Part shown: piece by piece, positions 20,805 through 43,596 of the stretch
How the letters are laid out: each line of letters begins with the position of its first letter
Numbering within the stretch: position 1 is the stretch's first letter
NCBI GenBank assembly: GCA_039811685.1
Contig: JBDHZC010000009.1
Location: 64,001-128,000 of the forward strand
Direction: 5' to 3'
Length of the DNA stretch: 64,000 bases
Source: Armatimonadota bacterium
Lineage (GTDB): Bacteria > Armatimonadota > UBA5829 > DSUL01
Program-made: the position numbers and the translations under genes
The notes under the pieces: model-generated
Seen by the model: the letters and a program-made list of their open reading frames with translations, nothing else
Told to the model about the DNA's origin: nothing
Databases searched by the model: none

Positions 20805-20945
20805 TACCGGTTTTGGCGCGGCTATGGCCGCATTGAAACACTGATTCTTGCAGGAGAGTTGTACGGACTACAGTATTATCTGCTCTTGCCGCTGCGTTAG
20901 CGGCTGACCAGGACGCCGGTGTCTGACAGGCAAAACAGGACAAAA

Positions 20946-22616: not shown

Positions 22617-22738
22617 CGAGTCCCCGGACTCCGGACACGCTCTGAACAGATAGCGCACAAAGCCGGCTGAGCCTCGCGCACCGTCAGGGACTGTACTCAG
22701 CCTCGCACTCAAGCACACATAGTCAACACGAGGAACGC

Positions 22739-23722: not shown

Positions 23723-23888
23723 ACTCCAAAAGCTCAGGCTGAGGAGCCGAATCGCAGGCCTTGCGCGTCTCATACAGGGTATCCGTGTGATGTGTCCCTC
23801 AGCAGGTGACTGCAAGTAAGAAACCTGCCAGCAAAACAAGCCTTCAGCGCACTGCCGGGCTGAGGACGAAGGACAGGAGAAAGAAACA

Positions 23889-24848
23889 ATGACCGTTTCG
23901 AAACTGCTGCGAGCTCTTCTGGCGCTTGTTGCGGGAGTGTGCGTAGCGTCCCCGGGGTGTTGTGATTTTACGTTCGTTCAGATCAGTGACATCCACGTGA
24001 CTCCTGAGAAGTCCGAGGTCGGGCAGAATTGGGCCCGCAACCGCGAAGCTTTGATCCGTCAGGTAAACGCGCAGCGGCCGGACTTTGTCATCGTTACGGG
24101 AGATCTCACAGAGACCGGCGCAAGCGCGGATTTCCGGGCGCTGAAGGGCTGGCTGCGCAAGTTTGACGCGCCGGTTTACGTGGTGCCTGGCAACCACGAC
24201 GTCGGCCGCAGAGTCAGCCGCTCCCCCGCTCGCTCCGCCAAGCCTCCTTACACCCGCTCTTTGCTGAATTACGAGCGAGTTTTCGGGCGGTCTTTCTATT
24301 CCTTTGCGCACGAGAACGCCTACTTCATCTTCATGAACTCCGGACTGTTTTCGACGGATAACCCGCGTTACCCGTATCAGCGTATGCGCGAGATGGAAGC
24401 CGCGCAATGGCTGGATTCTGAGCTGCGCTATGCGAACAATGCGGCCTACCCCCTTGTGTTTGTCCTGCAGCACTATCCGCTCAAGGAAACTCAAGGGTTG
24501 GGTGACACGCTGAATCGCGCGGAGGTTTCAGCGCTGATGTTTGGGCATATCCACCGTTTTACAAGTGGCGTGAGAGGCAGGGTACTGACGGTGTCTGTAT
24601 CTTCGTCCAAGGGAGGCGCCGCGCCAAACGCGCTTCCGTGTTTTGCGCTCGTAAAAGTCAGCGGGGACGGCGCTATCTACAACTATATTGCGGCGAACGG
24701 AGAGGTTGTTCGTCCGCCCGTGAGTATCCCGGCGAGGGCTGTCGGTAGCAATACGCTGTGGGACGTGCGAAGCGCGCTCTTTCCCCGGCTTCCGGCTGCG
24801 TCGCTGGAGCGCATACTCCCGGAGCCACGTGAGGGACACAGACTATGA
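23889..24848 (+). CDS. Secreted calcineurin-like metallophosphoesterase
   Basis: SDIH, GDL, GNHD and GHIH. Confidence 0.85.
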   Translation: MTVSKLLRALLALVAGVCVASPGCCDFTFVQISDIHVTPEKSEVGQNWARNREALIRQVNAQRPDFVIVTGDLTETGASADFRALKGWLRKFDAPVYVVPGNHDVGRRVSRSPARSAKPPYTRSLLNYERVFGRSFYSFAHENAYFIFMNSGLFSTDNPRYPYQRMREMEAAQWLDSELRYANNAAYPLVFVLQHYPLKETQGLGDTLNRAEVSALMFGHIHRFTSGVRGRVLTVSVSSSKGGAAPNALPCFALVKVSGDGAIYNYIAANGEVVRPPVSIPARAVGSNTLWDVRSALFPRLPAASLERILPEPREGHRL

Positions 24849-25939
24849 GAAAATGCAGGTGGTCTAGCGCTATCTCGGCCGGGCTGCTGATTGCTGTTGC
24901 TCTTTCGAGCACAGCTTCGGCGACGAAGGTCGTTTTTAACGGAGACGGTGTGGCGGTTGTGGATGGGCGGCCTTTCTTTCCGATTGGCATCTACTGTTAC
25001 AACCTTACCAGCGACATAATGGCTGATTTACACGAGCGGCGCTTCAACACGATAGTCAACATTGTTACGGGATTCGAGGCTTCGCAGCTTGACTTCATTC
25101 ATCAGAATGGGCTGATGAGCGTTGTTCCTTACACTCCGGAGTGGGTGAAGGCCGCCAAAGACCACCCTTCTCTGCTGGCGTACTATCTGACGGATGAGCC
25201 GGAAGGGCACGGCGACGTGGTAGAGAAGGAGCGGGAGAAGTACCTGGAGATGCGCCGGGAAGACCCGAACCATCCGGGCGGGTTGTGTCACTATCTCTTC
25301 GGGGCGATCGAGCGCTTCAAAGACGCATGCGACTTCACGATGAGCGATGTGTATCCTGTGACGGCCAGCCGGGATACGCCGCTGCGAAATGTCGGGGTTC
25401 ACATAGACGAGGCGCACCGCGTACACGGGCGCATGTGGCCGACGTGGGCGTGGATTCAGGTTTTTGGCGGGCCGGATACCGATGGTGGCAAATGGGCGCA
25501 GCCTCTGGCGCAAGAGGTGCGCTGCATGACTTACATCGCTCTGGCGCATGGAGCAACGGGGATTCTCTACTTCTCTTACTGGCCGAAAGCTCCGGAGACT
25601 TGGGGGTCGTTGGGTGAGTTGAACCGGGAGATAGAGGTGATAACTCCCTATCTGGTTGCTCCGGGCAAAGAGAGTGCGGTGTCTTCTGACAAAAATCAGA
25701 TCGAGATGCGGGCTCGCAAGTGCGTGAGTGGAGGGGTTGTCATAGCCGTCAACACTCAGCCAACTTATGTCAGCGCAAAGCTGAAGGTGGACGGTTTGCG
25801 CAACTCTCTGGAAGCGCCCTTTGAGAACCGCGCGCTGGAGACGGAGAACGGGTCCTGGCAGGATCGCTTCGCGCCCCATGAAGCGCATGTGTATGTCTGG
25901 GGAAAGGCTCCGAAAGTTGAGCTGGGAGGGATGAGATGA
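24845..25939 (+). CDS. Secreted glycoside-hydrolase-like (TIM barrel) protein
   Basis: Signal peptide, DGRPFFPIG, YYLTDEP and DVYP. Confidence 0.6.
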   Translation: MRKCRWSSAISAGLLIAVALSSTASATKVVFNGDGVAVVDGRPFFPIGIYCYNLTSDIMADLHERRFNTIVNIVTGFEASQLDFIHQNGLMSVVPYTPEWVKAAKDHPSLLAYYLTDEPEGHGDVVEKEREKYLEMRREDPNHPGGLCHYLFGAIERFKDACDFTMSDVYPVTASRDTPLRNVGVHIDEAHRVHGRMWPTWAWIQVFGGPDTDGGKWAQPLAQEVRCMTYIALAHGATGILYFSYWPKAPETWGSLGELNREIEVITPYLVAPGKESAVSSDKNQIEMRARKCVSGGVVIAVNTQPTYVSAKLKVDGLRNSLEAPFENRALETENGSWQDRFAPHEAHVYVWGKAPKVELGGMR

Positions 25940-26823
25940 AGCTGGCGATGGGTGAGCGTGAGATGGAGCTGGGCGGCCCTTACCTGGGCACGTTGCCGGA
26001 GGCCACACATCTTATGGGAGATGCGGATGCGTTGCGTGAGCAGATGGAGCGTGACGGATTTTTGCTGATCCGCAAGCTGCACGATCCGGAGAAGGTGAAG
26101 GCGGCGCGGCGGCTGGTTCTGGAGAATCTGCGCGACAACGGCCAGCTTGACTCGGAAGCGTCGTTGGAAGAAGGGTTGCTGCGCGAAGGCGGTCGCGGCG
26201 CGTTTCTGGGAGGCTCAAAAGCAGTGACGCACACACCAGAGTTCCTTTCGGTCGTGGAATCTCCGGAGCTGATGCGGTTCTTCAGCGATTTTCTGGGGGC
26301 GCCGGCGCTGACTTTTAGCTACAAATGGCTGCGAGCAGTGGGGCGTGGGGAGTTCACGGGCGCGCACTACGACGTGGTCTATATGGGGCGTGGAACAGCA
26401 CGGCTTTTCACATGCTGGACTCCACTGGGCGATGTGTCTTTTGAAAACAGTCCCCTGGCTATTCTGGAGGGCTCGACGCGCATTGAGCGGCTGAAGCAGA
26501 CGTACGGGCGGATGGACGTGGACAGAGACAACGTCGAAGGGTGGTTTTCCAATGATCCTGTTGAACTGGTCGAAAACTTCGGCGGGCGCTGGCTGACTTC
26601 AGAGTTTGAGATGGGCGATGCTTTGATCTTCGGGATGTATCTGATGCATGGATCGCTGAGGAATATGACGAATCGCGTACGCCTGAGTTGTGACACGCGC
26701 TATCAGAGCGCAAATGAGCCGGCGGATGAGCGCTGGACCGGGGAGAATCCTCTGGCGCACTACGCATGGGGACAAACTGAGATGACTCCAATGGCCGAGG
26801 CGCGCAGACGCTGGGGCGTCTGA
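25936..26823 (+). CDS. Phytanoyl-CoA dioxygenase (PhyH) family
   Basis: HYD...H facial triad and RLSCDTRYQ. Confidence 0.85.
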   Translation: MKLAMGEREMELGGPYLGTLPEATHLMGDADALREQMERDGFLLIRKLHDPEKVKAARRLVLENLRDNGQLDSEASLEEGLLREGGRGAFLGGSKAVTHTPEFLSVVESPELMRFFSDFLGAPALTFSYKWLRAVGRGEFTGAHYDVVYMGRGTARLFTCWTPLGDVSFENSPLAILEGSTRIERLKQTYGRMDVDRDNVEGWFSNDPVELVENFGGRWLTSEFEMGDALIFGMYLMHGSLRNMTNRVRLSCDTRYQSANEPADERWTGENPLAHYAWGQTEMTPMAEARRRWGV

Positions 26824-27050: not shown

Positions 27051-27079
27051 TTGCATTTGCCTAAAACGCCTGTTATGAT
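27051..27079 (+). promoter_or_regulatory. Promoter TTGCAT-17-TATGAT (extended -10) of the capsid cluster
   Basis: Visible in an AT-rich stretch upstream of the 27113 gene. Confidence 0.7.
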
Positions 27080-27080
27080 A

Positions 27081-27094
27081 CGAACAAATGTTCT
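27081..27094. promoter_or_regulatory. Putative LexA (SOS) box CGAACAAATGTTCT
   Basis: GAAC-N4-GTTC palindrome immediately downstream of the -10. Confidence 0.7.
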
Positions 27095-27112
27095 GTTCAA
27101 GGAGGGCGAGGA

Positions 27113-27475
27113 GTGGTCCACGGTGCGGCGGTGGCGATCGGTTCTTCGCGCGGGTTGGCGCAGACGCTCTGGCGGCCGGCGCTGGAGGCGGTTGGCTCTG
27201 AGGGCACAGAAGCGCAGACGGGAGTGGCGTATCTGCTGGAGCGCGAGTTTCGCGAAGTGGTGGCGCTGGCGCGGATGAGCTTTCGGGAACGCGAGGCTCT
27301 GGAAATGGCTCGCTGCGGATGGAGTGAGACGGAGATGGGCAGGGCGCTTTCTCTCAGCCGCTCTCAGACGACAGAGTTGCTCTCCAAAGCGCGACGGAAG
27401 CTACAGGCGGCGCGCGAGAGATATCCGTTTGCGGGTCTGTGGGAAGTTTACCGGGATGAAGTAGCGCGGCTGTAG
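27113..27475 (+). CDS. Sigma70 region 4-like HTH regulator (putative late activator)
   Basis: SFREREALEMARCGWSETEMGRALSLSRSQTTELLSKARRKL; AAGGAGG RBS. Confidence 0.7.
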   Translation: MVHGAAVAIGSSRGLAQTLWRPALEAVGSEGTEAQTGVAYLLEREFREVVALARMSFREREALEMARCGWSETEMGRALSLSRSQTTELLSKARRKLQAARERYPFAGLWEVYRDEVARL

Positions 27476-27506
27476 GCACGGTGGTGGAGGTTGGGCTGAA
27501 GGGACT

Positions 27507-27887
27507 TTGCTGAAGAAAAAACAGAGCCAGGCAGTGGATCTGCTGTTTCTGGGCTCCCCGGAGAAGGTGGCGCAGAAAGTGGGCGTGCGGCACTCGACGC
27601 TGCAACGCTGGCTGGAGGACAGGCGCTTTCAGCAGGCGTTGAAGGCGCGGGCAAAGCAGAAGCGCAGGGCCAGCGAGCGCCTGGCGCTGCAGGCGGTGAT
27701 GATGGCATCGAGCGCTCTTGAGGCGGCTCTTCGAACAGGTGAGGACCGGCCCGTGACGCGAGCGGCTCTGGAGACGTTGAAGATCAGCGGCGTATTGCCG
27801 GGCTGCCTGGAAGCGACGCGGGACAGCGCGGACTCTCTGGCGGATGTGATTGCGCGGGTGAAGGCGGAGATGGATGAGCACGGTTAG
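27507..27887 (+). CDS. Putative terminase small subunit (HTH)
   Basis: EKVAQKVGVRHSTLQRW HTH; overlaps the TerL start. Confidence 0.6.
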   Translation: MLKKKQSQAVDLLFLGSPEKVAQKVGVRHSTLQRWLEDRRFQQALKARAKQKRRASERLALQAVMMASSALEAALRTGEDRPVTRAALETLKISGVLPGCLEATRDSADSLADVIARVKAEMDEHG

Positions 27888-29235
27888 CCGGGCGGGAAGT
27901 CAACCTCGGCTCCGGCTGGCCCTGGCTAAAGCGCTATGGAACTGGCAGGCGCATCCGACGCAGAGAGAGTGGCTGTTGTGTGACGCTTCTGTAAAAACTG
28001 CGGCTTGCGGGCGGCGGTGGGGAAAGACGGAAGCGCAGGCCGTGGACGCAGCGAGCTTCGCGTTGGTGCACGATGGCTCTGAACAGATAGTGGTTGCGCC
28101 GACCTACGACCAGGCGTCACTCATTGCGCGCGGGGTCGAGCGCCTGTTGCTCGGCTCACCGGCAACGCGCACGCTAACGCAGGTGCGCCGGACTCCCTAT
28201 CCGTTGATTACTGTTGGTCGGAGCCGGATTTCCGCCCGAACGGCGGATGAAGACGGGCGCGCTCTGCGGGGACACCGCGCGGATCGCGTGATTGTGGACG
28301 AGGCGGCTTTTGTGCGTGACAGCGTTATCTCGGAGGTCATCCAACCTATGCTGGCGGACTCCGACGGGCAGCTTATCCTGATCAGCACTCCTTACGGGCG
28401 CAACCTGTTCTGGAAGCTGTGGAGCCAGGGCGCCTCCGGGAACCCGAAAGCCGCCTTCCGCTTTCCGTCCAGCGCAAATCCGCACATCAGCGCCCGCTAT
28501 GTGGAAGAGCAGCGGGAGCGCCTGCCCGAGCGGGCCTTCCGGGCGGAGTATCTGGCTGAGTTTGTGGACGATCAGGCGCAGGTGTTCGCGTGGACGGATA
28601 TTCAGCAGTGCTTTGAGCTTGGGCGCACGCCTCACCAACCCTCTAGCTCTGTGCGGGAGCGGCGCATTGTGGCGGGGATTGACTGGGCCCGCTACTCGGA
28701 TTGGACGGTGTGTGCGGCGGTGGAGTGCGCCTGCGATCCATGGCGCGTTGTGGCTCTGGACAGGTTTCAGGGGCTGAGCTGGCAGGCGGCGGTGGAGCGC
28801 GTGGCAGGTTTTCTGAAAGACACTGAAGCGTGCGCTGCGCTCTCAGACGCAACCGCAACAGGAGGAGATGCGCTCCTGGAGCAGCTTTGCGTGGCTGTAG
28901 CGGGAGCGGGTTGCGAGGTAGATGGTTATGTCTTCACGTCAACGTCCAAGCAGCATCTGGTGGAGAATCTGAGCGTGGTTATGGCGCGTGGCGGCCTTGC
29001 GCTGCCGCCGGAAGAGCTTTCGCATTCTGGGGCGCTGATTCACGAGTTGAAGAGCTATCAGTATGTCCAGCGCCCTGGCGGCGCTGTCAGCTTTGGCGCA
29101 GCGCCGGGGGAGCATGATGACTGCGTCACAGCGCTGGCTCTGGCCGTGTGGCAGGCGAAGAACGCGCCGCAGTGGCGGATTATGACATCGGGTGCGCTGC
29201 TCGGCGATCGGCGGCGCGGGCGCGCGTTGTGGTGA
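27874..29235 (+). CDS. Terminase large subunit
   Basis: Walker A GRRWGKT, Walker B VIVDEAA, ISTP, nuclease GIDWA and HDDCVTALAL. Confidence 0.92.
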   Translation: MSTVSRAGSQPRLRLALAKALWNWQAHPTQREWLLCDASVKTAACGRRWGKTEAQAVDAASFALVHDGSEQIVVAPTYDQASLIARGVERLLLGSPATRTLTQVRRTPYPLITVGRSRISARTADEDGRALRGHRADRVIVDEAAFVRDSVISEVIQPMLADSDGQLILISTPYGRNLFWKLWSQGASGNPKAAFRFPSSANPHISARYVEEQRERLPERAFRAEYLAEFVDDQAQVFAWTDIQQCFELGRTPHQPSSSVRERRIVAGIDWARYSDWTVCAAVECACDPWRVVALDRFQGLSWQAAVERVAGFLKDTEACAALSDATATGGDALLEQLCVAVAGAGCEVDGYVFTSTSKQHLVENLSVVMARGGLALPPEELSHSGALIHELKSYQYVQRPGGAVSFGAAPGEHDDCVTALALAVWQAKNAPQWRIMTSGALLGDRRRGRALW

Positions 29236-29286
29236 TAAGTGAGCAGTCTCTCTGGTTAGGGCAGGGACACTGAGAAGGAGGGTTTT

Positions 29287-30384
29287 GTGGCAATAGCTGG
29301 TCTCTTGAAGCGTCTGAGGCGTGAGGGGAAGGGGTCTGAAGCGCCGGTGGAGCTGGCGGCAGCCAGGCGACGGTACTTATCCGGACCGGGCGCCTTGCTG
29401 CCGTACAATCCGGACGACCTTGCCCGGCGCGAGGGGCTGGAAGTGTACGACCGGATGCAGACGGATGCCCAGATTGCGGCGGCGCTGGTGACGAAGAAGT
29501 TTGCGGCACTGTCCGGGGGCTGGCGGGTTACGCCCGCTTCAGAGCGGCGCGAGGACGTGCAGGCGGCGCAGTTTTGTCACCGGGCACTGGAGGAGATGAA
29601 AGGGACGGTGGAAGACGCGCTCTACGGAGTGCTGGACGCTCTGGCAAAGGGCTACTCGGTGGCTGAGATGAACTTTGCGCGCGTTGGAGACCGCGTCGGT
29701 CTGGCGTCTATCAAACAGAAGGATCCGGCGCTGTTTGAGTTTGAGACAGACGAGTATCTGAACATCACAGCGCTTGTCAGGATAGGAACAGACGGAGATG
29801 AGCCCCGGAAGCTGCCTGTGGAGAAGTTCATCATCTACACCTACATGCCCACCTATGCGGACCCGCGGGGACGCTCGGATCTGCGCTCATGCTACCGCCA
29901 CTGGTGGACCAAAGATGTCATTCTGCGCTTTTTCGCGTCGTATCTGGAGCGCTTTGGCTCACCCGTGGTCAAGGGGACGTACCGCCGCGGGGCGACGCGC
30001 GCCCAGCAGGAGGATCTCCTGCGGATTCTGGACCGCATCCAGCAGGAGACCGCCATCGTCATTCCGGAGGACGTGACGGTGGATCTCCTTCAGGCGGGGC
30101 TGCAGGGCGAGAAGGGATTTCTGGAGGCCATCGCCTATCACGACCGGCAGATGGCCAAAGCCATCCTCGGAGAAACGCTGACACAGGAAGAGGGGCTGCG
30201 CACGGGCGCTCTGGCTCTGGCGAAGGTGCATCAGGATACGCTGAAGCTGCGTCTGCAGAAGATCAAGCGCGATCTGGAGGAGACTGTGGCGCGTGAGCAG
30301 ATTCTGCGTCCGCTGACACGGCTGAACTTTGCCGGAGCGGCTGTACCGCGGTTTGAGCTGGGCGCATTCGACGCCAGCGTGTGA
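29287..30384 (+). CDS. Portal protein (DUF935 / Mu gp29-like)
   Basis: DALAKGYSVAE, PRGRSDLR, YLERFGSP, KAILGETLT and AKVH. Confidence 0.85.
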   Translation: MAIAGLLKRLRREGKGSEAPVELAAARRRYLSGPGALLPYNPDDLARREGLEVYDRMQTDAQIAAALVTKKFAALSGGWRVTPASERREDVQAAQFCHRALEEMKGTVEDALYGVLDALAKGYSVAEMNFARVGDRVGLASIKQKDPALFEFETDEYLNITALVRIGTDGDEPRKLPVEKFIIYTYMPTYADPRGRSDLRSCYRHWWTKDVILRFFASYLERFGSPVVKGTYRRGATRAQQEDLLRILDRIQQETAIVIPEDVTVDLLQAGLQGEKGFLEAIAYHDRQMAKAILGETLTQEEGLRTGALALAKVHQDTLKLRLQKIKRDLEETVAREQILRPLTRLNFAGAAVPRFELGAFDASV

Positions 30385-30463
30385 AGCGCATGTGTTGGGT
30401 TTGGGCGGCGGACCCTGAGAGCCCGCTGACAGCAGGTAGGTTTGCCTGTTCTGCCTAAATTGA

Positions 30464-30492
30464 TTGACATAAACTACCGAAGAGGGTATAAG
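30464..30492 (+). promoter_or_regulatory. Promoter TTGACA-17-TATAAG of the TAC cassette
   Basis: Near-consensus match. Confidence 0.75.
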
Positions 30493-30514
30493 ATAATTAA
30501 CCTGGAAGTTAACA

Positions 30515-30898
30515 ATGCCAGTCTCGCTCTGTAAGCTGCCGCTCGCAGAGAGGGTCCCTGCTGTTCAGTATGAGTTCTACCTGTGGACGGATGGTGAGCG
30601 CTCGCCCGTTGCCGAGTTTCTGAGTAGCCTCCAGCCCGCAGACCTGGACAAGGTCAAGGCGTTGCTGGTCCGGGTGGCGCGCTGCGGGATTCCGAGGAAT
30701 GGCGAGAGATACAAGCGTCTGGCGGGGAACTACGAAAATCTCCATGAGTTCAAGTTGCACCAGGTGAGGCTCTATTTCTTTATGGAGGGCAAGAAGATTG
30801 TCTTCACGGAGGCAGAGATCAAGAAGAGGGACCGGTCCAACCCCCAGGCGCTTGCCCGAGCTGATGCGCGACGACGGAGATATTCCAGTGAGAAGTAA
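30515..30898 (+). CDS. RelE/HigB (Gp49-like) toxin
   Basis: SPVAEFLSSL...KRLAG...LHEFK...RLYFF...KKRD pattern. Confidence 0.8.
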   Translation: MPVSLCKLPLAERVPAVQYEFYLWTDGERSPVAEFLSSLQPADLDKVKALLVRVARCGIPRNGERYKRLAGNYENLHEFKLHQVRLYFFMEGKKIVFTEAEIKKRDRSNPQALARADARRRRYSSEK

Positions 30899-30911
30899 AA
30901 GGACAGGCGAA

Positions 30912-31340
30912 ATGGCTGTAGATGATTTGTTGAAGAAGATGGCCGGGGGCGCCGAAAGCCCTGTCTATCAGACGGAGAAGGTTATTCTGGATTTCACGGA
31001 GCGCATCTGTGAGATTATGGAAGACTCGGGAACAAGCCGTGCTGAGCTGGCTGAACGGCTCGGGCGCTCTCGTCCGTGGGTGACCAAGCTCCTGAGAGGT
31101 GATCAGAATATGACCATTGCAACGATGGTCGGGGTCATGCTGGCTCTTGGCTACGAACTGAGGCTTGAGGCGCTGCCACGTGACAGGGTCGCTGCGCAGT
31201 GGCAACTCATTGAAGAGAGCCATCCTCCGGTGATTAAACTCTTTCCCAGGGCTGCGCGAGATATCTCTTATGAGTTTGAGGAAGAGCTGGTTGCAGCGGA
31301 AGCAGGGAGCACAGCCGATGGACACACTGTCGCCGCTTGA
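30912..31340 (+). CDS. Xre-HTH antitoxin (HigA-like) with C-terminal extension
   Basis: SRAELAERLGRSRPWVTKLLRGDQNMTIATM; alternative start GTG 30888. Confidence 0.8.
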   Translation: MAVDDLLKKMAGGAESPVYQTEKVILDFTERICEIMEDSGTSRAELAERLGRSRPWVTKLLRGDQNMTIATMVGVMLALGYELRLEALPRDRVAAQWQLIEESHPPVIKLFPRAARDISYEFEEELVAAEAGSTADGHTVAA

Positions 31341-31776
31341 GGCGAACCGGATCTGGGTGGAGCGTCTGGATATTCGTTTTGCGCAGGAGCTTAGGGCGCA
31401 CGACTGCTCGGCCTACGATCTGAAGATTGAGCCAAAGGCATGGAAGGACGCCAGTGGTGTCTCATACAAAGTGCGCCTGGCTTTTGCGCTGCGGCCTCGA
31501 GAAGTGGACCAGTGCTGCTACTCAAAGCTGGATGTCGCGATCGTTGGGGTTTTTACACTTCCTAGTGATACGGATGAGGCGATTCGTAGAAACCTGATTC
31601 CACTCAACTGTTATGTGATTCTCTACGGTTTTGCGCGCGGTCTTGTTGCACAGGTTACCGGTCTGAACCCGGGTGGGCCGTTTCTCTTGCCAGCGGTCAA
31701 TTTTATGGAAGTCCTGCGCGCACAGCGGGCTCCGCGTCGCAAGGCCCTGAGGAGTGAGGTGGCGCAGGCTCAATAG
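31318..31776 (+). CDS. SecB-like chaperone
   Basis: VAIVGVF...NCYVILYGFARGLVAQVTG...PFLLPAVNF resembles the SecB C-terminal signature. Confidence 0.78.
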   Translation: MDTLSPLEANRIWVERLDIRFAQELRAHDCSAYDLKIEPKAWKDASGVSYKVRLAFALRPREVDQCCYSKLDVAIVGVFTLPSDTDEAIRRNLIPLNCYVILYGFARGLVAQVTGLNPGGPFLLPAVNFMEVLRAQRAPRRKALRSEVAQAQ

Positions 31777-31810
31777 ATAGGCGCGTTTTTCTGATAACGG
31801 CGGTTTTTTG

Positions 31811-31845
31811 AAGGCTCTTCGGACTTGTTCCGGAGGGCCTTTTTC
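31811..31845 (+). terminator. Intrinsic terminator closing the TAC cassette
   Basis: AAGGCTCTTCGGA-CTTGT-TCCGGAGGGCCTTTTT. Confidence 0.75.
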
Positions 31846-31888
31846 ATTGCCTGGCTTCGGTGTGAACCAGGAGAAAGGAAGGGTAGGC

Positions 31889-32032
31889 ATGGGGCTTCGT
31901 TGGCTGACACCTTTGTGGGCGGTGGTGCGCTCGGCGGTGCGGCGCAGGCTGCATGAGCTTGTAGATTCTGTGGATGAAGAAGATGTGGAGCGCTTTCGCG
32001 AGCGGCTGCACACCTGTATAGACCTGCTGTGA
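31889..32032 (+). CDS. Small hypothetical protein (47 aa)
   Basis: Purine-rich RBS, amphipathic N-terminus, lies just before the protease gene. Confidence 0.45.
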   Translation: MGLRWLTPLWAVVRSAVRRRLHELVDSVDEEDVERFRERLHTCIDLL

Positions 32033-32046
32033 GAGGAGATGTTCGT

Positions 32047-32847
32047 ATGACGCAAGGCAACAAGGGGACGACGCGCGGCCCGCTTGATGGGCAGCGCGCC
32101 GTAGTAGAACGCGAAGCGCTGCTGTTTGAAACCGGGGACTACCCGGACAAAAACCTGAGCGTTACAGAAGAGACTCTGACGGCAATGGAGAGCGCGTTTG
32201 CGGCTCCAGCGCCCATTCGAGTGGAGCATACGGAGTCTCCAGTGCGCTTTGGCTGGCTGACAAAGGTCTGGAAGAGCGGACGGGCGCTGATGGGCAAGCT
32301 CTCGTTTACGCAGGCGGCATGGGAGTTGGTGCGTGAGAGCGGGGCGCGTTGTCTGTCCATCGGACTCAACCGCGACACACTGGCCATCGAGGAAGTCTCG
32401 TTGGTACGCAGTCCACGTGTGGCTACCGCGCGCATCTTTTCAAACGAAGCGCTGGCCATTTTCACGGCCGATCTGACAGAGGCTTTTTCAGCGGACTCAG
32501 TTGGCGTGGAGGTGGCAAAGCTGCGCTCGGAGCTGGCGCTGCGGGACGCAAAGGAGGATGTGCGGCGCTTTCTTGAGCGCGGCAAGCTTGCTCCCGCGGC
32601 TCAGGACGCGGCGCTGGCTCTGTTGGCGGCCCGATCGGAGCGTGTCAACTTTGGTTCTGAGCCTACCTGCGTAGCTGAGGTGTTCCGGCAGTTTATGGAA
32701 GCGCAGCCGCCTGTGGTACTGTTTGGCGAGCTGGCACCCGGATCTGCTGCGAAGGCCGGCCGGTTCGGCCAGGAAGATAGAAGGGTCTTTGCTCTGATGG
32801 GGATCAGCGAAGACGACATTGCGCGATTTGAGAAGGAGGGAGACTGA
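32047..32847 (+). CDS. Capsid maturation protease/scaffold (Mu gpI-like)
   Basis: VEH, GWL, LSIG and VSLVRSP followed by a helical scaffold-like C-terminus; gene position. Confidence 0.7.
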   Translation: MTQGNKGTTRGPLDGQRAVVEREALLFETGDYPDKNLSVTEETLTAMESAFAAPAPIRVEHTESPVRFGWLTKVWKSGRALMGKLSFTQAAWELVRESGARCLSIGLNRDTLAIEEVSLVRSPRVATARIFSNEALAIFTADLTEAFSADSVGVEVAKLRSELALRDAKEDVRRFLERGKLAPAAQDAALALLAARSERVNFGSEPTCVAEVFRQFMEAQPPVVLFGELAPGSAAKAGRFGQEDRRVFALMGISEDDIARFEKEGD

Positions 32848-33261
32848 ATGGCGGCATTGACACAGGACAGGGACATCTGGCGCAGGGAGGGTCAGATTCT
32901 GAGCGTACCGGTGAAGGGCAACAAGGTGATTTTCAAAGGGGCGCTGGTGTGCTCCAGCGCGGGTTTCGCCACACCCGGCTCTGATACGAACGGGCTGCGT
33001 TTCTGCGGTGTGGCGCTTGAGAGCGCGGACAACACGGGTGGCCCGGACGGCGCGCTGAGTGTGCGAATCTGGCAGAGCGGTGTCTTTCCCGTCAGCAAGC
33101 CCTCCGCAACAGCTTCCGACATTGGCGCGGAGGTGGCGGTCGTGGACGATCAGACAGTTGATCTGCTCAGCGTCACGACCAATGACGTGAAGTGTGGGCG
33201 GATCGTCCGGGTGCTGTCCTCGAGTGAAGTGGAGCTGAAGGTGGATGGCTACGCTTATTGA
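32848..33261 (+). CDS. Capsid decoration/cement protein
   Basis: IFKGALV, GVALESADNTGG and DDQTV; position before the major capsid gene. Confidence 0.7.
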   Translation: MAALTQDRDIWRREGQILSVPVKGNKVIFKGALVCSSAGFATPGSDTNGLRFCGVALESADNTGGPDGALSVRIWQSGVFPVSKPSATASDIGAEVAVVDDQTVDLLSVTTNDVKCGRIVRVLSSSEVELKVDGYAY

Positions 33262-33265
33262 GGGA

Positions 33266-33467
33266 GGGTGTCGGTCTTGATGGCCGGGTGCAGGTGGCCG
33301 GCGGATAAAACCGCGCTTTCGAAGCGAAGTCTCCCTTCGGAGACTATTCGCTTTGTCACGTGTCGGGGGTGCCGGTCTTGATGGCCTGGTGCAGGTGGCC
33401 GGCGGTTAAAACCGCGCTTTCGAAGCGAAGTCTCCCTTCGGAGACTGTTGGTTTTGTCACGTGTCGG
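33266..33467 (+). repeat. Two tandem 101-bp units, each carrying a REP palindrome
   Basis: GGCCGGCGGWTAAAACCGCG...AAGTCTCCCTTCGGAGACT twice. Confidence 0.85.
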
Positions 33468-33523
33468 GGGTGGGCCGGTGATGCGGGTGCGGGTGCGGGA
33501 AAATAGGGAGGTTAGAAGAAGCT

Positions 33524-34420
33524 ATGGGAATTGTAAAATCGGACATTCCCGCCGGGCTGACGGCGGGCGTGCGGGCGCTGTTTCTGAGATCAATGGAGAC
33601 AGCGCCCTCGCACTACCGGAAGCTGGCGATGGTGATGCCATCCACAAAAAGTGAGGAGAAATACGCCTGGCTTTCGAGCGTGCCGGGCGTGCGGGAGTTC
33701 GTGGACGAGCGCCGGGCGGCGAGTTTGCAGGAGCGCTCCTTCACCATTGAAAACAAGACGTGGGAAGCGACTATTGAGGTGGAGCGCGCGGCGCTGGAAG
33801 ACGAGCAGTATGGGCAGATCAAACTGAGAGTGCAATCTCTGGCTGAGGCAGCGGCGCGCCACAAAGAGCAGATGGTCATAGACCTGCTGGCCAGAGGCTT
33901 TACTGATGAGTGCTATGATGGAGAGCCGTTCTTTTCCAGCACTCACCCTGCCGGGAGCGCTACACAATCCAACACGGGCGCCTCCGCTCTGTCTGCGTCT
34001 GCTGTGCAGTCAGCTATCTCTCAGATGGCGAAGCTGACGGACGAAGAGGGGCGGCCGCTGGGAGTTGTTGCGGACACGCTGATTGTGCCCCCCGATCTGG
34101 AATGGAAAGCTCTGGAGCTGGTAGGCAGTATTCTGGGTCCGGAGACGAGCCTGAACGCGATCAACCCTCTGCGCGGTCGTCTGGAAGTTATCGTGAGTCC
34201 GTACCTGACAGACGCGAACAACTGGTTTGTCGCAGCGACGAAAAGCGCCCTGAAGCCGTTCATTCTGCAGGAACGCACGGCTGTGGAGTTTGAGGCTCTG
34301 GATGGGCAGTCCGGCTCTGAGAGCGCCTTCATGCGGGATCGCTTCTACTACGGTGTGCGCGCCCGCTACAACGCGGGATACGGGCTTTGGCAGCTTGCCT
34401 ATGGCAGCGCGGTTAGCTAG
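33524..34420 (+). CDS. Major capsid protein (Mu gpT-like)
   Basis: EKYAWL, ENKTWEATI, CYDGEPFFSSTH, LIVPPDLE and YGLWQLAYGS. Confidence 0.9.
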   Translation: MGIVKSDIPAGLTAGVRALFLRSMETAPSHYRKLAMVMPSTKSEEKYAWLSSVPGVREFVDERRAASLQERSFTIENKTWEATIEVERAALEDEQYGQIKLRVQSLAEAAARHKEQMVIDLLARGFTDECYDGEPFFSSTHPAGSATQSNTGASALSASAVQSAISQMAKLTDEEGRPLGVVADTLIVPPDLEWKALELVGSILGPETSLNAINPLRGRLEVIVSPYLTDANNWFVAATKSALKPFILQERTAVEFEALDGQSGSESAFMRDRFYYGVRARYNAGYGLWQLAYGSAVS

Positions 34421-34445
34421 CCGGCTACGGGTATCAGCTTGTTTC

Positions 34446-34480
34446 GGAGGCCCCGGATGGATTTCCGCGGCCTCTTTTTT
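34446..34480 (+). terminator. Terminator after the major capsid gene
   Basis: GAGGCC...GGCCTC stem followed by T6. Confidence 0.75.
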
Positions 34481-34501
34481 CATCTATTGAAAGGAGCGGA
34501 T

Positions 34502-35005
34502 ATGAGCGATTCTAGAAACGTGCTACCCGTAGCCGTTGATCTGGCGACAAAGCTGGCGGGTGAGGATCAGGTTAACGACTGGACAAAAACGGTGCGTGGC
34601 GGCCCGAGCGCCGCTCGCGTCTATACGCCGGAAGACACCGGCATCAACGGCCAGACGCTCGGGTCGGCGCTTGCGGGCAACTGGGTGGACACTGCGGGCT
34701 TTCGCACTGCCGTCGCGTTCATCCGCGTCGCGGGGACGTACGGCGGGTCCCCTTACGGTCTGGACCTGCTCGGCAGTCCCGTCGGCCCTGGAGACACCTG
34801 GGGGACGGACAATCAGTGGGCGGTGTCTCTTGGAAACCGCAGCGGTCTCACGGCGCTTGGCAGCTTCGTGCTCGGCAACACAGGCGTGGGCAACTACGCG
34901 TCGTCCTCGGCGTGGACTGGCTGCGTTGCCCGAAAGAGCCGTGTGGACGTCGGGGCAGCCGGCGCGAGCGCTCAGGCCTGGGCCTATCTGGTTTGTCTGC
35001 CATGA
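34502..35005 (+). CDS. Hypothetical Gly/Thr-rich protein (possible head fibre or spike)
   Basis: AAGGAG RBS; stop overlaps the next start (ATGA). Confidence 0.6.
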   Translation: MSDSRNVLPVAVDLATKLAGEDQVNDWTKTVRGGPSAARVYTPEDTGINGQTLGSALAGNWVDTAGFRTAVAFIRVAGTYGGSPYGLDLLGSPVGPGDTWGTDNQWAVSLGNRSGLTALGSFVLGNTGVGNYASSSAWTGCVARKSRVDVGAAGASAQAWAYLVCLP

Positions 35006-35691
35006 GAGCCAGATTCCACTACAGACGCATCTGGTTTCTGGGCGACAGCCTGACTGCTGGCTATGACGCATCCGCTGAGAGCGCGTGCTTTCGCACTGTC
35101 GCTACAGCATCGCTGCAGGCAGCAGCCCTGCTGCAGGACGCAGGGGCCCTGGTGATCCATTCAGCCAACCAGTACGGTGGAAAAGTCAAAGACGGCGTAC
35201 GGCAGGCCATTGCGGAGGCCTCCTTTGCCGCAGACATCGCGGTGCTGCAGTTTGGAGAAAATGACCGGCCCTACGCTGTAGCCTTTCCAGAGCAGTACGC
35301 CCGGCTGATTGCCCAGTTTCAGCGGGAAGGGCGGCGGCCGCTGATTGTGGCTTTCTCCATCTGGGCGCCAACGCCAGACGCCTACAGCGCAGCCGTCAAT
35401 GCCGATATTCGCGCTCTGGTAGAGACTTCAGGAGGCGCTTTTGTGGACATTCAGGCGGCGGCATCCGATCCGTTGAACCGCGAAGAAGGCCGGGATGTCA
35501 CCTGGCTGGGGGATGAGCAGCACACTCTGTCTGACAGTTTTCATCCCAACGACAGAGGGCATGCAAAGATGGCCACTGCCCTGATAGACGCGCTGTCCCC
35601 GTGGACAGCAGCAGGGCCACGGCGTCTCGCGGCTTCCGGGCGGCAGAGCTCGCAGACGCGCGGGGCTGCAGCGGAGCGGGTGAGCGCGTGA
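35002..35691 (+). CDS. SGNH/GDSL hydrolase
   Basis: LGDSLT, GEND and DSFHP blocks. Confidence 0.85.
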   Translation: MRARFHYRRIWFLGDSLTAGYDASAESACFRTVATASLQAAALLQDAGALVIHSANQYGGKVKDGVRQAIAEASFAADIAVLQFGENDRPYAVAFPEQYARLIAQFQREGRRPLIVAFSIWAPTPDAYSAAVNADIRALVETSGGAFVDIQAAASDPLNREEGRDVTWLGDEQHTLSDSFHPNDRGHAKMATALIDALSPWTAAGPRRLAASGRQSSQTRGAAAERVSA

Positions 35692-35707
35692 GCGAAAGGA
35701 GTGAGCA

Positions 35708-36142
35708 GTGAGTCTGACTATCACAAAGGCGGATGTCAAGCGCAAATGCATGATTGATGCGGCGGACACAACCTGGGATGCCCCGATTGAGTCGCTGATT
35801 GACGAGATGCAGCCAGCCATCGAGTACACGCTGGATGAGAGCGCTCTGAACGATCCGGAAGCGGGGCTCCAGGCGCTTCTACAGCTTGGCGTCCTGGAGC
35901 TGATTGTGGCGGAATTTCTGGCGCAGCGGTTCCGGGAGGCTGGCTATGCGGAGGAGTTTCAGGTTGGCGCAATTCGTATCGGCCAGCTCTGGGAGCGCGG
36001 AAAGGCGATTTTTGAGCAGGGCGCTGCGCGTCTGGCGCCATTTCGAAAGGCGATGGGCGTGTCGGATGCGCAGACGAAAGTCCTGTCAAGCAGCGTATCC
36101 CACCCTCGTTTGATGTCTTCGACTGAACGGAAGGGCTGGTGA
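35708..36142 (+). CDS. Putative head-tail adaptor
   Basis: TKADVKR N-terminus, helical, size and position; AAGGAG RBS. Confidence 0.55.
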   Translation: MSLTITKADVKRKCMIDAADTTWDAPIESLIDEMQPAIEYTLDESALNDPEAGLQALLQLGVLELIVAEFLAQRFREAGYAEEFQVGAIRIGQLWERGKAIFEQGAARLAPFRKAMGVSDAQTKVLSSSVSHPRLMSSTERKGW

Positions 36143-36444
36143 TGGGGGCTTTTACAAAGCGGATGGATGCGAAGCTGGCAGTGTACGGTGAGCTTATCTC
36201 GCTGGGTGGTGTGGATGTGCGCGCGCTGGTGCAGGACATGACCAGCAGCTACATTACTACCTACTTTGACCCGCCGGATCAGTCTTCCGTGATCCGTCCG
36301 GGACTGCTGGCCGTTGTCGGGGCGGACGTTTCGGCGAGCGCTGGGCAGTCGGTAAGTCTGGGCGCGCGGACCTACACCGTGTGGAAGGTGGCGCCTCAAC
36401 ATCTGGCTGGTCAGGTCGTCTGTCAGGTGCTGGCGCTTTATTGA
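36142..36444 (+). CDS. Putative head-closure (stopper) protein
   Basis: About 100 aa beta-rich, G-x-x-V...TYTV pattern; follows the adaptor. Confidence 0.5.
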   Translation: MGAFTKRMDAKLAVYGELISLGGVDVRALVQDMTSSYITTYFDPPDQSSVIRPGLLAVVGADVSASAGQSVSLGARTYTVWKVAPQHLAGQVVCQVLALY

Positions 36445-36455
36445 AAGGAGGGAGA

Positions 36456-36686
36456 GTGGATAGTAGAGATATTATGTCGCGCCTGGCGGTTATTGAGGCG
36501 CGGCTGCAGGATGCGCTTGGGCATCTAGTGGAGATCCGCCGGCATGTGCCAGGCACGCTGATTTCGCATACCGAACGGATAGCCTCTGTTGAGCGCGCGC
36601 AGAGAAGTCTGGTCTGGGGACTGGCGGCTGCGTTTGGTGGGTTCTTGAGCGCTTTTGTCGCTCACATCTTTGGAGGATTGCCATGA
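36456..36686 (+). CDS. XhlA-like holin / lysis membrane protein
   Basis: Coiled-coil N-terminus plus one C-terminal TM helix; AAGGAGG RBS; precedes the lysin. Confidence 0.55.
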   Translation: MDSRDIMSRLAVIEARLQDALGHLVEIRRHVPGTLISHTERIASVERAQRSLVWGLAAAFGGFLSAFVAHIFGGLP

Positions 36687-37141
36687 TAAGCGCGCAGAGC
36701 GCCGGCGCCCAGCTCGCCGAAGTTTGTGCCCATCTGGCGCACTGGCGCAAGGGCGCGGCCAACCCGGAAGGACGTTGTCTGGAAGCGGTGCGCTGGGCCC
36801 TGGCGCAGGAAGCCTTGAGTCTCCCTGGCCCCTTTGTGCGCCCGAACAACACGGCATTGGGGTGCTTTGATGCCCTGGAGAAAGCGCCGGAGCGGTGGAG
36901 CTGGCAGAGATGGACCCACGCGCAGCATCCCGGACAGAGCCTGCCGCTATGCCTGGTGTTTTTCAAGGACTGCGGGTATCTGTCCGACGGTCGCGTTGCC
37001 GGGCACGTGGCGGTGTACGACCCGGCCCGCCGCCGCCATGAGGCGAATCAGGTATATCCGATGACGCTGTGGTGGGCGCAGCGGTTGATCGGGGCGTTTG
37101 TGCCGCTCAGAAGGCCGGGTATTGGAGGCGCCGGCGGTTGA
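36683..37141 (+). CDS. CHAP/NlpC-P60-like endolysin
   Basis: GRCLEAV...LVFF...GHVAVY...HEAN catalytic pattern. Confidence 0.6.
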   Translation: MISAQSAGAQLAEVCAHLAHWRKGAANPEGRCLEAVRWALAQEALSLPGPFVRPNNTALGCFDALEKAPERWSWQRWTHAQHPGQSLPLCLVFFKDCGYLSDGRVAGHVAVYDPARRRHEANQVYPMTLWWAQRLIGAFVPLRRPGIGGAGG

Positions 37142-37308
37142 AACCGACTCTGCGGGACGGGGAGGCGCCGGCGGTTGAAACCGCGCCTGTGGGACGGGGA
37201 GGCGCCGGCGGTTGAAACCGCGCCTGTGGAACGAAGTCTCCCTTCGGAGACTTTTGGTTGTGAGCCTGCGAAGGCAGGCTTTGTCTGGTTAGAGGCGACT
37301 TCAGTCGC
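37124..37308. repeat. REP cluster: three 37-bp tandem units plus one inverted REP (REPIN-like)
   Basis: GGAGGCGCCGGCGGTTGAAACCG at 37124, 37161 and 37198; inverted copy at about 37262-37308. Confidence 0.85.
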
Positions 37309-37675
37309 TCAGCTCTCTTGACCGGAGAGAATCGACTATCTCCTGTGTCTGGTACACGACTCGGGACTCGGTCCAGGAGGGATTCTGGACGTGGAGCAGC
37401 TCATGCACAATGTCCTCCAGCGTCAGAATTCGCGTGTGATAGATGGTCGCGATATGTGTGTCATAGACCACTCCGACCAGTGACCAGCCCGGGCGGCCGT
37501 CTTCGCCCGTCACCTGAAACCGGCTGATGCGCTCCAGAATGATGCGCTGGGGTATGCGCAGGCGTTGACGCCAGAAATGCGCCGCATCTCTGGCCTGGTC
37601 GTCAGTCAGAGGCTGAAGAGGCGCTCGATGGGATATCTGTGTGTGAACGTGCTGCAAAGACTCCGGCTCCGACAT
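37301..37675 (-). CDS. Small HExxH (zincin-like) hypothetical protein
   Basis: DIVHELLH motif; start uncertain. Confidence 0.5.
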   Translation of the reverse strand: MSEPESLQHVHTQISHRAPLQPLTDDQARDAAHFWRQRLRIPQRIILERISRFQVTGEDGRPGWSLVGVVYDTHIATIYHTRILTLEDIVHELLHVQNPSWTESRVVYQTQEIVDSLRSRELSD

Positions 37676-38028
37676 CCTGCGATGTGAGTGATCCGCCGCC
37701 GGTCTCATCCTGTGCGGCCTTTGCGGACAAGACTTTCACTTGCGACATGTCTAATCATCGGCACAGTTCTGACAGGTCTCCAGTCCTGCTATTCAACGTA
37801 GAGGAGGCTGGCGCGGGCGGTCAGGCGGTGGAGGGCTTCGGACCAGCGCGCCCGCAGAGACTCTCTCACAAAAGGCCCTGCTCAGGCGCCTGCGGCTTCA
37901 GAAAATGGCGAATTCTGGGCTCTCAGTAGAACAAACCGGGCGGTGTCACGCGTCTTTATATGTGCGCGTGTAGAGGGATTGCGGGCGCGCCTTTGTTGTC
38001 CGGCATCGGAGTAAATGAACCAGAGCCT

Positions 38029-39168: not shown

Positions 39169-39606
39169 TCACTTTATCTTTTCGTAGGTGACCAGAATCT
39201 CTCCCATGCGCTGAGGCACAGAGGTGAGCTTTCTGTTGTCGTCGCTGACGTTGAAGGCGATAGGCTCTCGATCAGCTTCGGGGGAGGGCTTCAGCAACAG
39301 GTTTTGTCCGGAGAGCTTCCATGTGCCTGAAAACTCCTTTTCGACAGTCATCATGAACGTGTGGTTGGGGTAGAGGGTCAGCGAGCTGTTGCCGAGCCGC
39401 GCGTTCAGCTCCGCTACCTGCGGGTCTGGCTTAGTGGAGCGCAGGGGCCTGGTCTCGTTTTCCCCGGGCATTGGTCCAGGAATCAGAAAATAGGGTTGGC
39501 GCGCTGAGATGGGCTGATACTTCCATACGCCAATCAACTCCGGCGCGCGCGCTGAGCATCCCGCAACTGTCGCTACGGCGATCAGCGCTGCAACAAATCG
39601 CTTCAT
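39169..39606 (-). CDS. Lipoprotein, hypothetical
   Basis: MKRFVAALIAVATVAGC lipobox; GGAG RBS. Confidence 0.7.
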   Translation of the reverse strand: MKRFVAALIAVATVAGCSARAPELIGVWKYQPISARQPYFLIPGPMPGENETRPLRSTKPDPQVAELNARLGNSSLTLYPNHTFMMTVEKEFSGTWKLSGQNLLLKPSPEADREPIAFNVSDDNRKLTSVPQRMGEILVTYEKIK

Positions 39607-39781
39607 TCTCCTATTATGCGCGGTGTCTCGTGTGCGCGGTGGCGGGACGAGCGGAGGTCTCCCAAATACCGAAGCGCCAGGCTGCGGCCGCCCGGGCGGG
39701 ATCGGTCTGTCCAGAGCGCGGTACACAAAATCGGCTCCGGGGTCTCCGGAGCCGAGTGAAATCCTGCGTCTGCAGTGTGCT

Positions 39782-43562: not shown

Positions 43563-43596
43563 AAATGAATCTCCAGGGCGCCGCATGCGCCGCCCG

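Follow-up and report, generated by a model that had tools for sequence, protein, structure and literature searches.

The stretch of DNA considered here (the 'window': 64,000 nucleotides, positions 64,001 to 128,000 of contig JBDHZC010000009.1 in assembly GCA_039811685.1, the 3.42-Mb, 15-contig genome of an Armatimonadota bacterium) carries, at positions 27113-37141, a cluster of phage-type genes for a small and a large terminase (TerS and TerL), a Mu-type portal, a protease/scaffold, a cement protein, a gpT-type major capsid protein, a head-to-tail adaptor, a stopper and putative lysis factors. We consider, at a rough probability of 60%, that this cluster is a head, packaging and lysis module of phage origin, domesticated long ago in the Armatimonadota and kept by its host as a viriform in the sense in which gene transfer agents (GTAs) are viriforms, and neither a prophage nor the remnant of one. 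That reading is carried by the content and intactness of the gene set, by its conservation among relatives, by its co-divergence with the host, by purifying selection on its structural genes, and by searches in which no tail genes were found (a wording chosen because the tail searches had limited sensitivity; the tail genes are 'not found' rather than absent). 'GTA-like' is used below for a well-supported candidate, known here from its genes alone.

A sequence-only reading of the window had proposed just such a domesticated, GTA-like module, in which DNA would be packaged into tail-less heads or into heads that use tails encoded elsewhere, on the strength of an unbroken, co-oriented gene set of about 10 kb running from an activator, TerS, TerL, portal, protease, cement and capsid through two accessory genes to an adaptor, a stopper, a holin and a lysin. 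All of the genes so named are present, in that order, and all cluster open reading frames (ORFs) lie on the plus strand, open and without internal stops. The proposal is supported by what follows, and those computational tests that had been put forward as capable of refuting it all came out in its favour.

Distribution, descent and selection of the module

Relatives of the cluster were sought in a class sample of 41 genomes from 28 genera (the window's own genome included) and in a phylum sample of 301 genomes; 16 class loci were fetched with their context for comparison of gene order, and eight loci from other classes were examined. Absence from relatives, or presence only inside complete prophages, had been named beforehand as outcomes that would indicate a decayed prophage, and neither was found: the capsid gene is present in 38 of the 41 class genomes and 27 of the 28 genera (the window's counted in both), the module thus being present in 37 of the 40 other genomes, and none of the 16 class loci or the eight loci of other classes shows it within a complete prophage. 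Nearly all of the class matches occur once per genome, at 48-77% identity. Across the phylum sample the capsid gene occurs in 97 of 301 genomes and is concentrated by family (30/33 in the window's class, 17/18 in f18, 13/19 in f29, 15/31 in f13 and 0/27 in f8), and TerL, in 103 of 301, follows the same pattern. Among the carriers is a metagenome-assembled genome labelled Chthonomonas calidirosea (L017), a species with cultured strains, in which protease, cement, capsid and adaptor genes are present.

Gene order, which the sequence-only reading had proposed to test, is preserved within the class. The order portal, protease, cement, capsid is kept in all 16 class loci, TerL is adjacent in 13, and the adaptor follows the capsid gene in 15 (in the remaining locus, L035, it follows the portal instead). 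Between these genes lie variable gaps of up to 3.6 kb, filled with unrelated cargo such as a toxin-antitoxin-chaperone (TAC) trio (the window and G004), a GNAT gene (L033) or a GGDEF-like gene on the other strand (L041 and L045). The last of these, at 12908-13327 in L041 and 7822-8241 in L045 (both from f2 genomes), is weakly similar (26% identity) to a GGDEF fusion gene in the window's right flank. Within genera the flanks are collinear over the whole 20 kb (L033 versus L036, and L041 versus L045).

In other classes of the phylum the genes run in the order cement, protease, capsid, adaptor, portal, and the head genes have housekeeping genes (MnmE, glycogen synthase, QueG and GidA, for example) as neighbours. 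TerL and the capsid gene may be widely separated on the same chromosome, by about 25 kb in G174, 320 kb in G143, 354 kb in G230, 1.0 Mb in G166, 1.36 Mb in G177 and 2.26 Mb in G169 (where TerL has a stop); in G112 the two genes are likewise far apart on one chromosome, in a range of hundreds of kb to more than 1 Mb. These dispersed head genes are still mostly intact. With TerL and capsid so far apart, a virus would be unworkable unless its host runs it, and dispersal over the chromosome is a pattern known from multi-locus GTAs.

The divergence of the module follows that of the host. Pairwise protein distances for six head genes correlate with those for RpoB at Pearson coefficients of 0.72-0.93 (0.85 for the capsid, over 210 pairs from 21 genomes), and a tree of concatenated capsid, portal and TerL from 15 genomes recovers the family clades and the within-family branching of the RpoB tree. 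A capsid and portal tree of 20 genomes, which adds families f29 and f18, agrees with the RpoB tree as well, the sole difference being the place of family f1, which is weakly supported in the head tree (support 45). Since the genomes are kin and a single host marker was used, the match between head-gene and host trees that had been called for is an agreement rather than a formal test. The families that retain the module differ in RpoB by 27% on average.

Purifying selection was measured in three close genome pairs (G001/G003, G012/G018 and G028/G040), in which dN/dS is far from the neutral value that would have spoken for decay: 0.04-0.11 for TerS, 0.05-0.11 for TerL, 0.05-0.06 for the portal, 0.07-0.12 for the protease, 0.07-0.18 for the cement protein, 0.04-0.10 for the capsid and 0.06-0.16 for the adaptor, with RpoB itself at 0.02-0.04. 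The dS values of the head genes are of the same order as those of RpoB. The accessory gene h188 has a higher ratio, 0.29-0.36.

Gene content of the cluster

The families of the cluster genes were assigned by Pfam and PHROGs searches (Table 1), through which TerS, TerL, portal, cement and capsid were identified by family, while the adaptor and stopper, which have no family hit, were identified by predicted fold from AF2 models built on alignments of relatives. The portal and the gpT-type capsid both score above their Pfam cut-offs, which places the head among Mu-like modules. The base composition of the cluster is that of its flanks.

Table 1. Features of the head, packaging and lysis cluster, in window coordinates
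Feature	Position	Strand	Basis
Small sigma-70 region-4-like HTH protein, putative regulator	27113..27475	+	Sigma70_r4_2 E 5.8e-4, below Pfam cut-off
Small terminase TerS	27507..27887	+	phrog_7344 E 9.5e-8, phrog_2538 E 6.1e-6
Large terminase TerL, ATPase and nuclease	27874..29235	+	Terminase_6N E 2.3e-12, phrog_2 E 5.5e-38
Mu-type portal, short form	29287..30384	+	Portal_Mu E 4.5e-70, 237.1 bits, above Pfam cut-off
HigB/Gp49-like toxin, cargo	30515..30898	+	Pfam Gp49 E 4.2e-6
HTH (XRE-type) antitoxin, cargo	30912..31340	+	HTH_31 E 1e-5, phrog_1373 E 3e-12, PADLOC PDC-M64C E 9.2e-9
SecB-like chaperone, cargo	31270..31776	+	Pfam SecB E 1.1e-5 (25.8 bits, cut-off 26); PADLOC PD-T4-9_C E 2e-6
Mu gpI-like protease/scaffold	32029..32847	+	phrog_976 E 2e-12, Mu-like_Pro E 1.1e-4
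Cement / virion structural protein	32848..33261	+	phrog_1731 E 7.4e-28, Phage_cement_2 E 1e-3
Two tandem 101-nt repeat units, each with hairpin, in the cement-capsid spacer	33266..33467		no component of the machine
Major capsid protein, Mu gpT / HK97 fold family	33524..34420	+	Mu-like_gpT E 1.6e-74 (251.3 bits), phrog_371 E 6.2e-80
Accessory protein h188	34439..35005	+	in family f1 only; without Pfam or PHROG match
SGNH/GDSL hydrolase, accessory	35002..35691	+	Lipase_GDSL_2 E 3.6e-16; also in G004
Head-to-tail adaptor h144, SPP1 gp15-like fold (predicted)	35708..36142	+	AF2 pLDDT 79.6
Stopper / head-closure protein h101a, lambda FII, SPP1 gp16-like fold (predicted)	36139..36444	+	AF2 pLDDT 90.1
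Small membrane protein h101b, putative holin-like lysis factor	36456..36686	+	coiled coil and C-terminal TM helix, about 70 aa
Putative cysteine-peptidase cell-wall hydrolase (lysin)	36683..37141	+	language-model likeness; without Pfam match

In TerL the Walker A motif (GRRWGKT), the Walker B motif (VIVDE) and the acidic nuclease residues are among 102 columns that are invariant over 15 genomes. Six relatives (G006, G007, G019, G028, G034 and G037) give a TerL match that is split in two, within one open frame, near residue 190, a pattern that points to a short insert separating the ATPase domain from the nuclease domain in families f2 and f3. The portal aligns to residues 10-338 of a 505-aa phage portal, the C-terminal 165 or so residues of the phage homologue being missing. 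For the protease/scaffold protein the match is good for the C-terminal scaffold part only; its protease activity is putative.

The 'activator' named at the head of the cluster is present as an ORF, and its assignment as a sigma-like protein falls short of the Pfam threshold (Table 1); its homologues were found in family f1 only, by tblastn matches in L014 and L031, and lie there on the opposite strand. An extended -10-like element, TGTTATGAT, was read by eye at 27071-27079; a promoter scan did not return this site, and the -35 region matches at 3 of 6 positions.

The earlier gene list was correct for the genes that it named and missed three others, the TAC-type toxin, HTH antitoxin and SecB-like chaperone that lie at 30515-31776, wedged in after the portal gene and before that of the protease (the antitoxin frame is open from 30798, with a likely start at ATG 30912). 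Only one other genus, g3, carries the trio (G004, L013 7173-8383), which amounts to two of 17 class loci. Its place inside a capsid operon is curious, because TAC chaperones have been reported to sense, and to be triggered by, phage structural proteins (10.1101/2024.02.24.581848). Of the remaining accessory genes, h188 has as its nearest protein-atlas clusters unnamed viral proteins, at a recognition below the usual level, and the SGNH hydrolase (open from 34816, likely start ATG 35002) has weak PHROG matches to tail and head-decoration families at E 3e-4 to 1e-2.

The spacer between the cement and capsid genes holds the two 101-nt repeat units, with terminator-like GC hairpins at 33328 and 33429. 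One contig from an RNA library skips 33263-33517, and the repeat insert may for that reason be polymorphic. A related copy of the unit, together with three 37-nt tandem units, lies just after the lysin at 37124-37262. Parts of the protease, capsid, h188, SGNH, TerL, portal and lysin genes are matched, at 0-2 differences, by contigs from RNA libraries of two studies. These matches were not counted as expression, because the flanks are matched too and carry-over of DNA is possible. Two DNA runs gave no contig joining across the element.

The identities of the two neck proteins rest on ranking, probability and structural re-alignment, and are predictions of that kind. Neither model had a match at E <= 0.001 in Foldseek alone, and nothing usable came out when the adaptor and stopper alignments were run as profiles against PDB sequences. 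When 413 chains of Foldseek's 421 best matches to the adaptor model (h144) were re-aligned by VIA, the top seven were all phage neck proteins, including those of P74-26 (Z 9.0, rmsd 2.7, 93 residues aligned), phage 812 (Z 7.8) and SPP1 (gp15, Z 7.6). The stopper model (h101a) matches stopper/FII proteins of T1, lambda, R4C and Pam3 with a Foldseek probability of 1.00 at E 1.6e-3 to 2.4e-2 (0.98-1.00, with E up to 5.8e-2, when Chi is included), SPP1 gp16 and a chain from RcGTA ranking lower, and the stopper of one relative has a weak Phage_attach match (E 2.6e-4).

In the window as in its relatives the stopper is followed by the lysis genes, after which host genes begin, and the 11-bp gap that had been described between the stopper and the lysis genes fits if h101b starts at GTG 36456. 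The 'holin' and 'lysin' of the sequence-only reading stand as regards membrane-protein topology for the one and CHAP/NlpC-like features for the other, and neither has a family match. Homologues of h101b are conserved across the class (15 invariant columns in an alignment of 11 sequences); no Pfam family matches the window's protein, and XhlA (PF10779), a family named for the lysis-associated membrane protein of PBSX, was found in one of the 11 homologues at E 0.32, so that h101b was not taken as a member of that family, its topology alone being alike. A separate ORF below the cluster of G038 (L035 7183-7437, minus strand) does match Pfam XhlA (E 4e-6) and has a coiled-coil and C-terminal TM layout like that of h101b. 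The window's lysin resembles unnamed and CHAP/NlpC-P60/Amidase_5 clusters in language-model atlas features (0.93-0.96). At the corresponding position, on the same strand and within 2.5 kb after the last conserved gene, a peptidoglycan hydrolase is found in 13 of 16 class loci, from unrelated families (Amidase_3 in five loci; M15/VanY in five, one of them below the Pfam cut-off; M23 in three; and an extra NlpC/P60 in two), and none was recognised there in L031, L035 and L040. Because the hydrolases have been replaced in place by unrelated enzymes, a lysis function appears to be selected at this position.

Flanks, mobility genes and the search for tails

The flanks look like host DNA, as had been claimed. 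The left flank includes IspDF, HPF, PFK and ROK genes, and the right flank a fatty-acid desaturase, a sigma-70 (regions 2, 3 and 4) protein fused to a GGDEF domain (39782-41167, minus strand) and type IV pilus genes. A 135-aa ORF that faces the end of the cluster (37301-37708, minus strand) has a HELLH motif of the HExxH, metallopeptidase-like kind, and neither a family match nor a homologue among the related loci. Of 18 flanking ORFs (14961-26823 and 39169-50516), none was recognised as belonging to an integrase, transposase or replication family, and neither a tRNA gene at the cluster borders nor flanking direct repeats suggestive of att sites were found, which bears out the earlier claim as to mobility genes, replication genes and att repeats. 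The only two tyrosine recombinases of the window's genome are both on another contig, and no integrase lies within 70 kb of the cluster in five genomes (the window's and four relatives). As to genes of Mu-like transposable phages, no transposase was found in the window's flanks and no sheath or baseplate gene in its genome. A comparison with empty sites was uninformative, as the neighbouring PhyH-like and fatty-acid desaturase genes have no close homologue in G001, G002 or G004.

The search for a separate tail locus, which the sequence-only reading had advised, turned up none by methods that are insensitive. Pfam models of tape measure, sheath and baseplate J proteins have no match in the window's genome, and the tail-tube models Phage_tail_2 and Phage_TTP_1 and the Sipho_tail and HK97-gp10 models none in five genomes (G000, G001, G004, G015 and G018), of which only G015 has a match to the T4-gp19 tube model. 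When 28 proteins of necks and tails, taken from three viral contigs that are related (L095, L098 and L087), were searched by tblastn against the window's genome, only the two control proteins came back, a weak result, since the window's own h144 was missed. In a guilt-by-association search of the genome with 2,757 ORFs from 42 related loci, no second structural locus emerged, the recurrent matches being multi-copy paralogue families and a housekeeping-type amidase only. A crude GC3-based gene caller, by which known genes were missed, served in the analysis for the pre-selection of ORFs alone.

The nearest true phages were sought in IMG/VR with the capsid alignment. Among the best 80 of 554 stretches encoding relatives, they share about 40% capsid identity and the same order of head genes, from Portal_Mu through the gpI-like protease, phrog_1731 and the gpT capsid to the adaptor. 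They differ from the cluster in what follows, L095 continuing with adaptor, Neck1, sheath, tube and tape measure genes, and L098 with Neck1, tape measure and Dit; their portals are also longer (about 500 aa versus 365 aa here), and they have a Mu F-like minor head protein that is absent from the cluster. In a capsid tree all 42 Armatimonadota-type sequences, eight IMG/VR contigs included, stand apart from six phage sequences. One 22-kb IMG/VR contig, L087, has a capsid that is 52% identical and groups beside family f3, and a portal that is 39% identical; its Mu Gp36-type adaptor is followed by four small ORFs of unknown type and one of 732 aa, and it may be a true tailed phage of Armatimonadota with a related head.

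Mechanism, competing explanations and known systems

If the cluster works as its genes suggest, some host signal would lead a fraction of cells to express the operon. The gpT capsid would then assemble on the Mu-type portal with the gpI-like protein as scaffold, the cement protein would stabilise the shell, TerS and TerL would fill it with DNA by a headful mechanism, and the adaptor and stopper would close the portal to leave a head that is sealed, filled with DNA and without a tail; lysis of the producer by the small membrane protein and the cell-wall hydrolase would finally release the heads. The purpose that we rank first is the transfer or protected export of host DNA, delivery of which would need a tail from elsewhere or another route of uptake. 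A more specific and tentative version, to which we give distinctly less than even odds, holds that a viriform inherited vertically throughout the phylum has plugged, tail-less, DNA-filled capsids as its end product; it would export chromosomal DNA by altruistic lysis, with no need of a tail of its own, and deliver it independently of tails or by docking on ambient phage tails.

Several observations weigh against the domesticated-viriform reading, or at least against its simplest form. We know of no route by which DNA is delivered from a tail-less head, and something may still dock on these heads, because a stopper of the long-tail type has been kept under selection. The tail searches were insensitive enough that the adaptors of related phages failed to find the window's adaptor by tblastn, and the putative holin and lysin of the window are named from topology and language-model likeness. 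The sigma-like regulator is not conserved beyond family f1, the RNA-library matches extend into the flanks and so lend no support to transcription, the immediate neighbours of the window's cluster are accessory genes absent from its family relatives, and the host flanks differ between genera. Some relatives have lost or damaged the module: G002 and G014 have neither capsid nor TerL and G011 a distant TerL only, the capsid gene is interrupted by a single in-frame stop in each of G017 and G029 and has a broken frame in G021, and TerL has a stop in G020, G022, G153, G169, G092 and G244. In family f29, moreover, some genomes have two to four capsid copies, and in G300 a 24,958-bp contig with an exact 15,312-bp period (L074, G300:C3:1-20000) and a related 16,096-bp contig (L075, G300:C2) both carry capsid, adaptor, stopper-like, portal, TerL, cement and protease genes, as well as a CsrA-like gene and roughly 7 kb of ORFs of unknown type, with no match to a tail, integrase or replication family. 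The periodic contig may represent a head-only element, present either as a small episome or in tandem array, and these extra copies, together with the 15,312-bp period, mean that some relatives may be episomal or mobile.

Of the alternatives, a GTA split between loci is unlikely in our view and still the one to be taken most seriously: the heads would receive tails from diverged tail, fibre and receptor-binding genes at one or more other chromosomal sites, as with the multi-locus RcGTA, and the whole would be a normal tailed GTA. Such an arrangement would account for the retention of a long-tail-type adaptor and stopper under purifying selection, and the scattering of head genes over the chromosome in other Armatimonadota classes would make it an instance of a local rule. 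A close parallel is FpGTA of Faecalibacterium prausnitzii, in which a near-ubiquitous (within the genus) head operon of 10.5 kb, with TerS, TerL, portal, scaffold, capsid and conserved hypothetical genes much as in the roughly 10-kb operon described here, is accompanied by a second, 5.5-kb operon some 125 kb away that encodes baseplate, fibre, receptor-binding protein, holin and endolysin, and whose particles are described as having no identifiable tails and are thought to be podovirus-like (PMC12946183). The split arrangement stays alive precisely because FpGTA, with apparently tail-less particles, has its tail genes at that distance. The present cluster differs from FpGTA in that its lysis genes sit with the heads rather than with a tail locus, its connectors belong to the long-tail type, and the searches turned up no second locus; the eight tail-related Pfam models without a match in the window's genome, the neck and tail proteins of three viral contigs without a tblastn match, and the ORFs beside head genes in 42 related loci that point to no shared second locus all argue in the same direction, each with low power.

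A satellite that became fixed and lost its mobility is a less probable source of the same gene set. Phage-inducible chromosomal islands of the capsid-forming kind (cf-PICIs) have genes for a capsid, protease, portal, head-tail connectors, TerS and TerL but not for a tail (10.1101/2022.09.08.507074), a structural content that is also that of the present cluster, and they are described as releasing tail-less, DNA-filled heads that become infective on joining the tails of unrelated phages (10.1101/2025.02.11.637232); heads of the kind predicted here could do likewise, in the same cell or outside it. The conserved stopper and the extra, possibly episomal copies in family f29 would fit such tail piracy. 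On the other side, cf-PICIs possess int, alpA and rep genes, helper phages induce them and their spread is horizontal, whereas no equivalent of these genes and no att-like repeat was found beside the cluster (the nearest tyrosine recombinase is on a different contig or, in four relatives, no closer than 70 kb), divergence tracks the host tree, and there is no spread of identical elements across species. Lysis genes of their own, such as those of the cluster, do not figure in the cited descriptions of cf-PICIs (10.1101/2022.09.08.507074; 10.1101/2025.02.11.637232). A role in defence, in which on phage attack DNA would be drawn into dead-end heads or phage tails soaked up, with early lysis as a form of abortive infection, seems more improbable again. 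It finds some encouragement in lysis genes that are kept by position through non-orthologous replacement, and in an anti-phage-type TAC trio inside the operon in two genera, of a class with chaperones triggered by phage structural proteins (10.1101/2024.02.24.581848); no head protein matches any PADLOC model, however, the trio occurs in so few of the class loci, and nothing ties expression to infection. The last possibility, a decaying prophage remnant without function, would explain why tail, integration and replication genes are missing and why a few relatives show stops or gene loss. It is excluded for practical purposes, with a probability close to nil, because structural genes evolve at a dN/dS of 0.04-0.18 and the catalytic motifs of TerL are invariant; all frames in the window are intact, the module is kept across families as divergent in RpoB as those described above and co-diverges with its hosts, and lysins have been replaced in place rather than lost.

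The domesticated-viriform reading thus places the cluster among systems that it resembles without matching any. Known GTAs are few, mostly alphaproteobacterial and tailed, and to our knowledge all formally classified GTAs are tailed. By descent the cluster has the hallmarks of such a system, namely phage-derived structural genes in the host chromosome without replication or integration genes of their own, vertical inheritance (judged from RpoB as one host marker, and with the place of family f1 weakly supported) and purifying selection on the structural genes; in behaviour, that is in random packaging and transfer, it is a candidate. With RcGTA-type agents it shares these features and, as read from its genes, release by lysis, and the sigma-like regulator at its head may be analogous to GafA, the RcGTA regulator. 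RcGTA differs in encoding a complete tail, in having head genes of the HK97/gp5 type rather than the Mu gpT and Mu portal type, in belonging to another phylum, and in that random packaging and transfer have been demonstrated for it and are hypothetical here. A GTA-like reading has also been proposed for provirus-derived loci of thaumarchaea (PMC6563490). Searches of titles and abstracts for Armatimonadetes or Armatimonadota together with gene transfer agent, terminase or capsid returned no description of the present element.

What emerges is a head-only module on which purifying selection is strong. It tracks the host tree through several families, and apparently classes, of a phylum that has had little study, and in some lineages it has been broken up over the chromosome in the manner of host genes. 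The metagenomes with near-identical DNA, from 12 studies, are mainly of activated sludge, sludge, wastewater and bioreactors (a few runs are labelled soil or biofilm), and with carriers in such habitats the question of function is directly testable. The module would widen the range of tamed viruses and raise the question of what use a host may have for a sealed, tail-less capsid; it also supplies a natural counterpart to the capsids without tails that have lately been reported for cf-PICIs. Were a sealed, tail-less capsid indeed the finished product, it would represent a new class of domesticated virus, beside tailed GTAs and tailocins.

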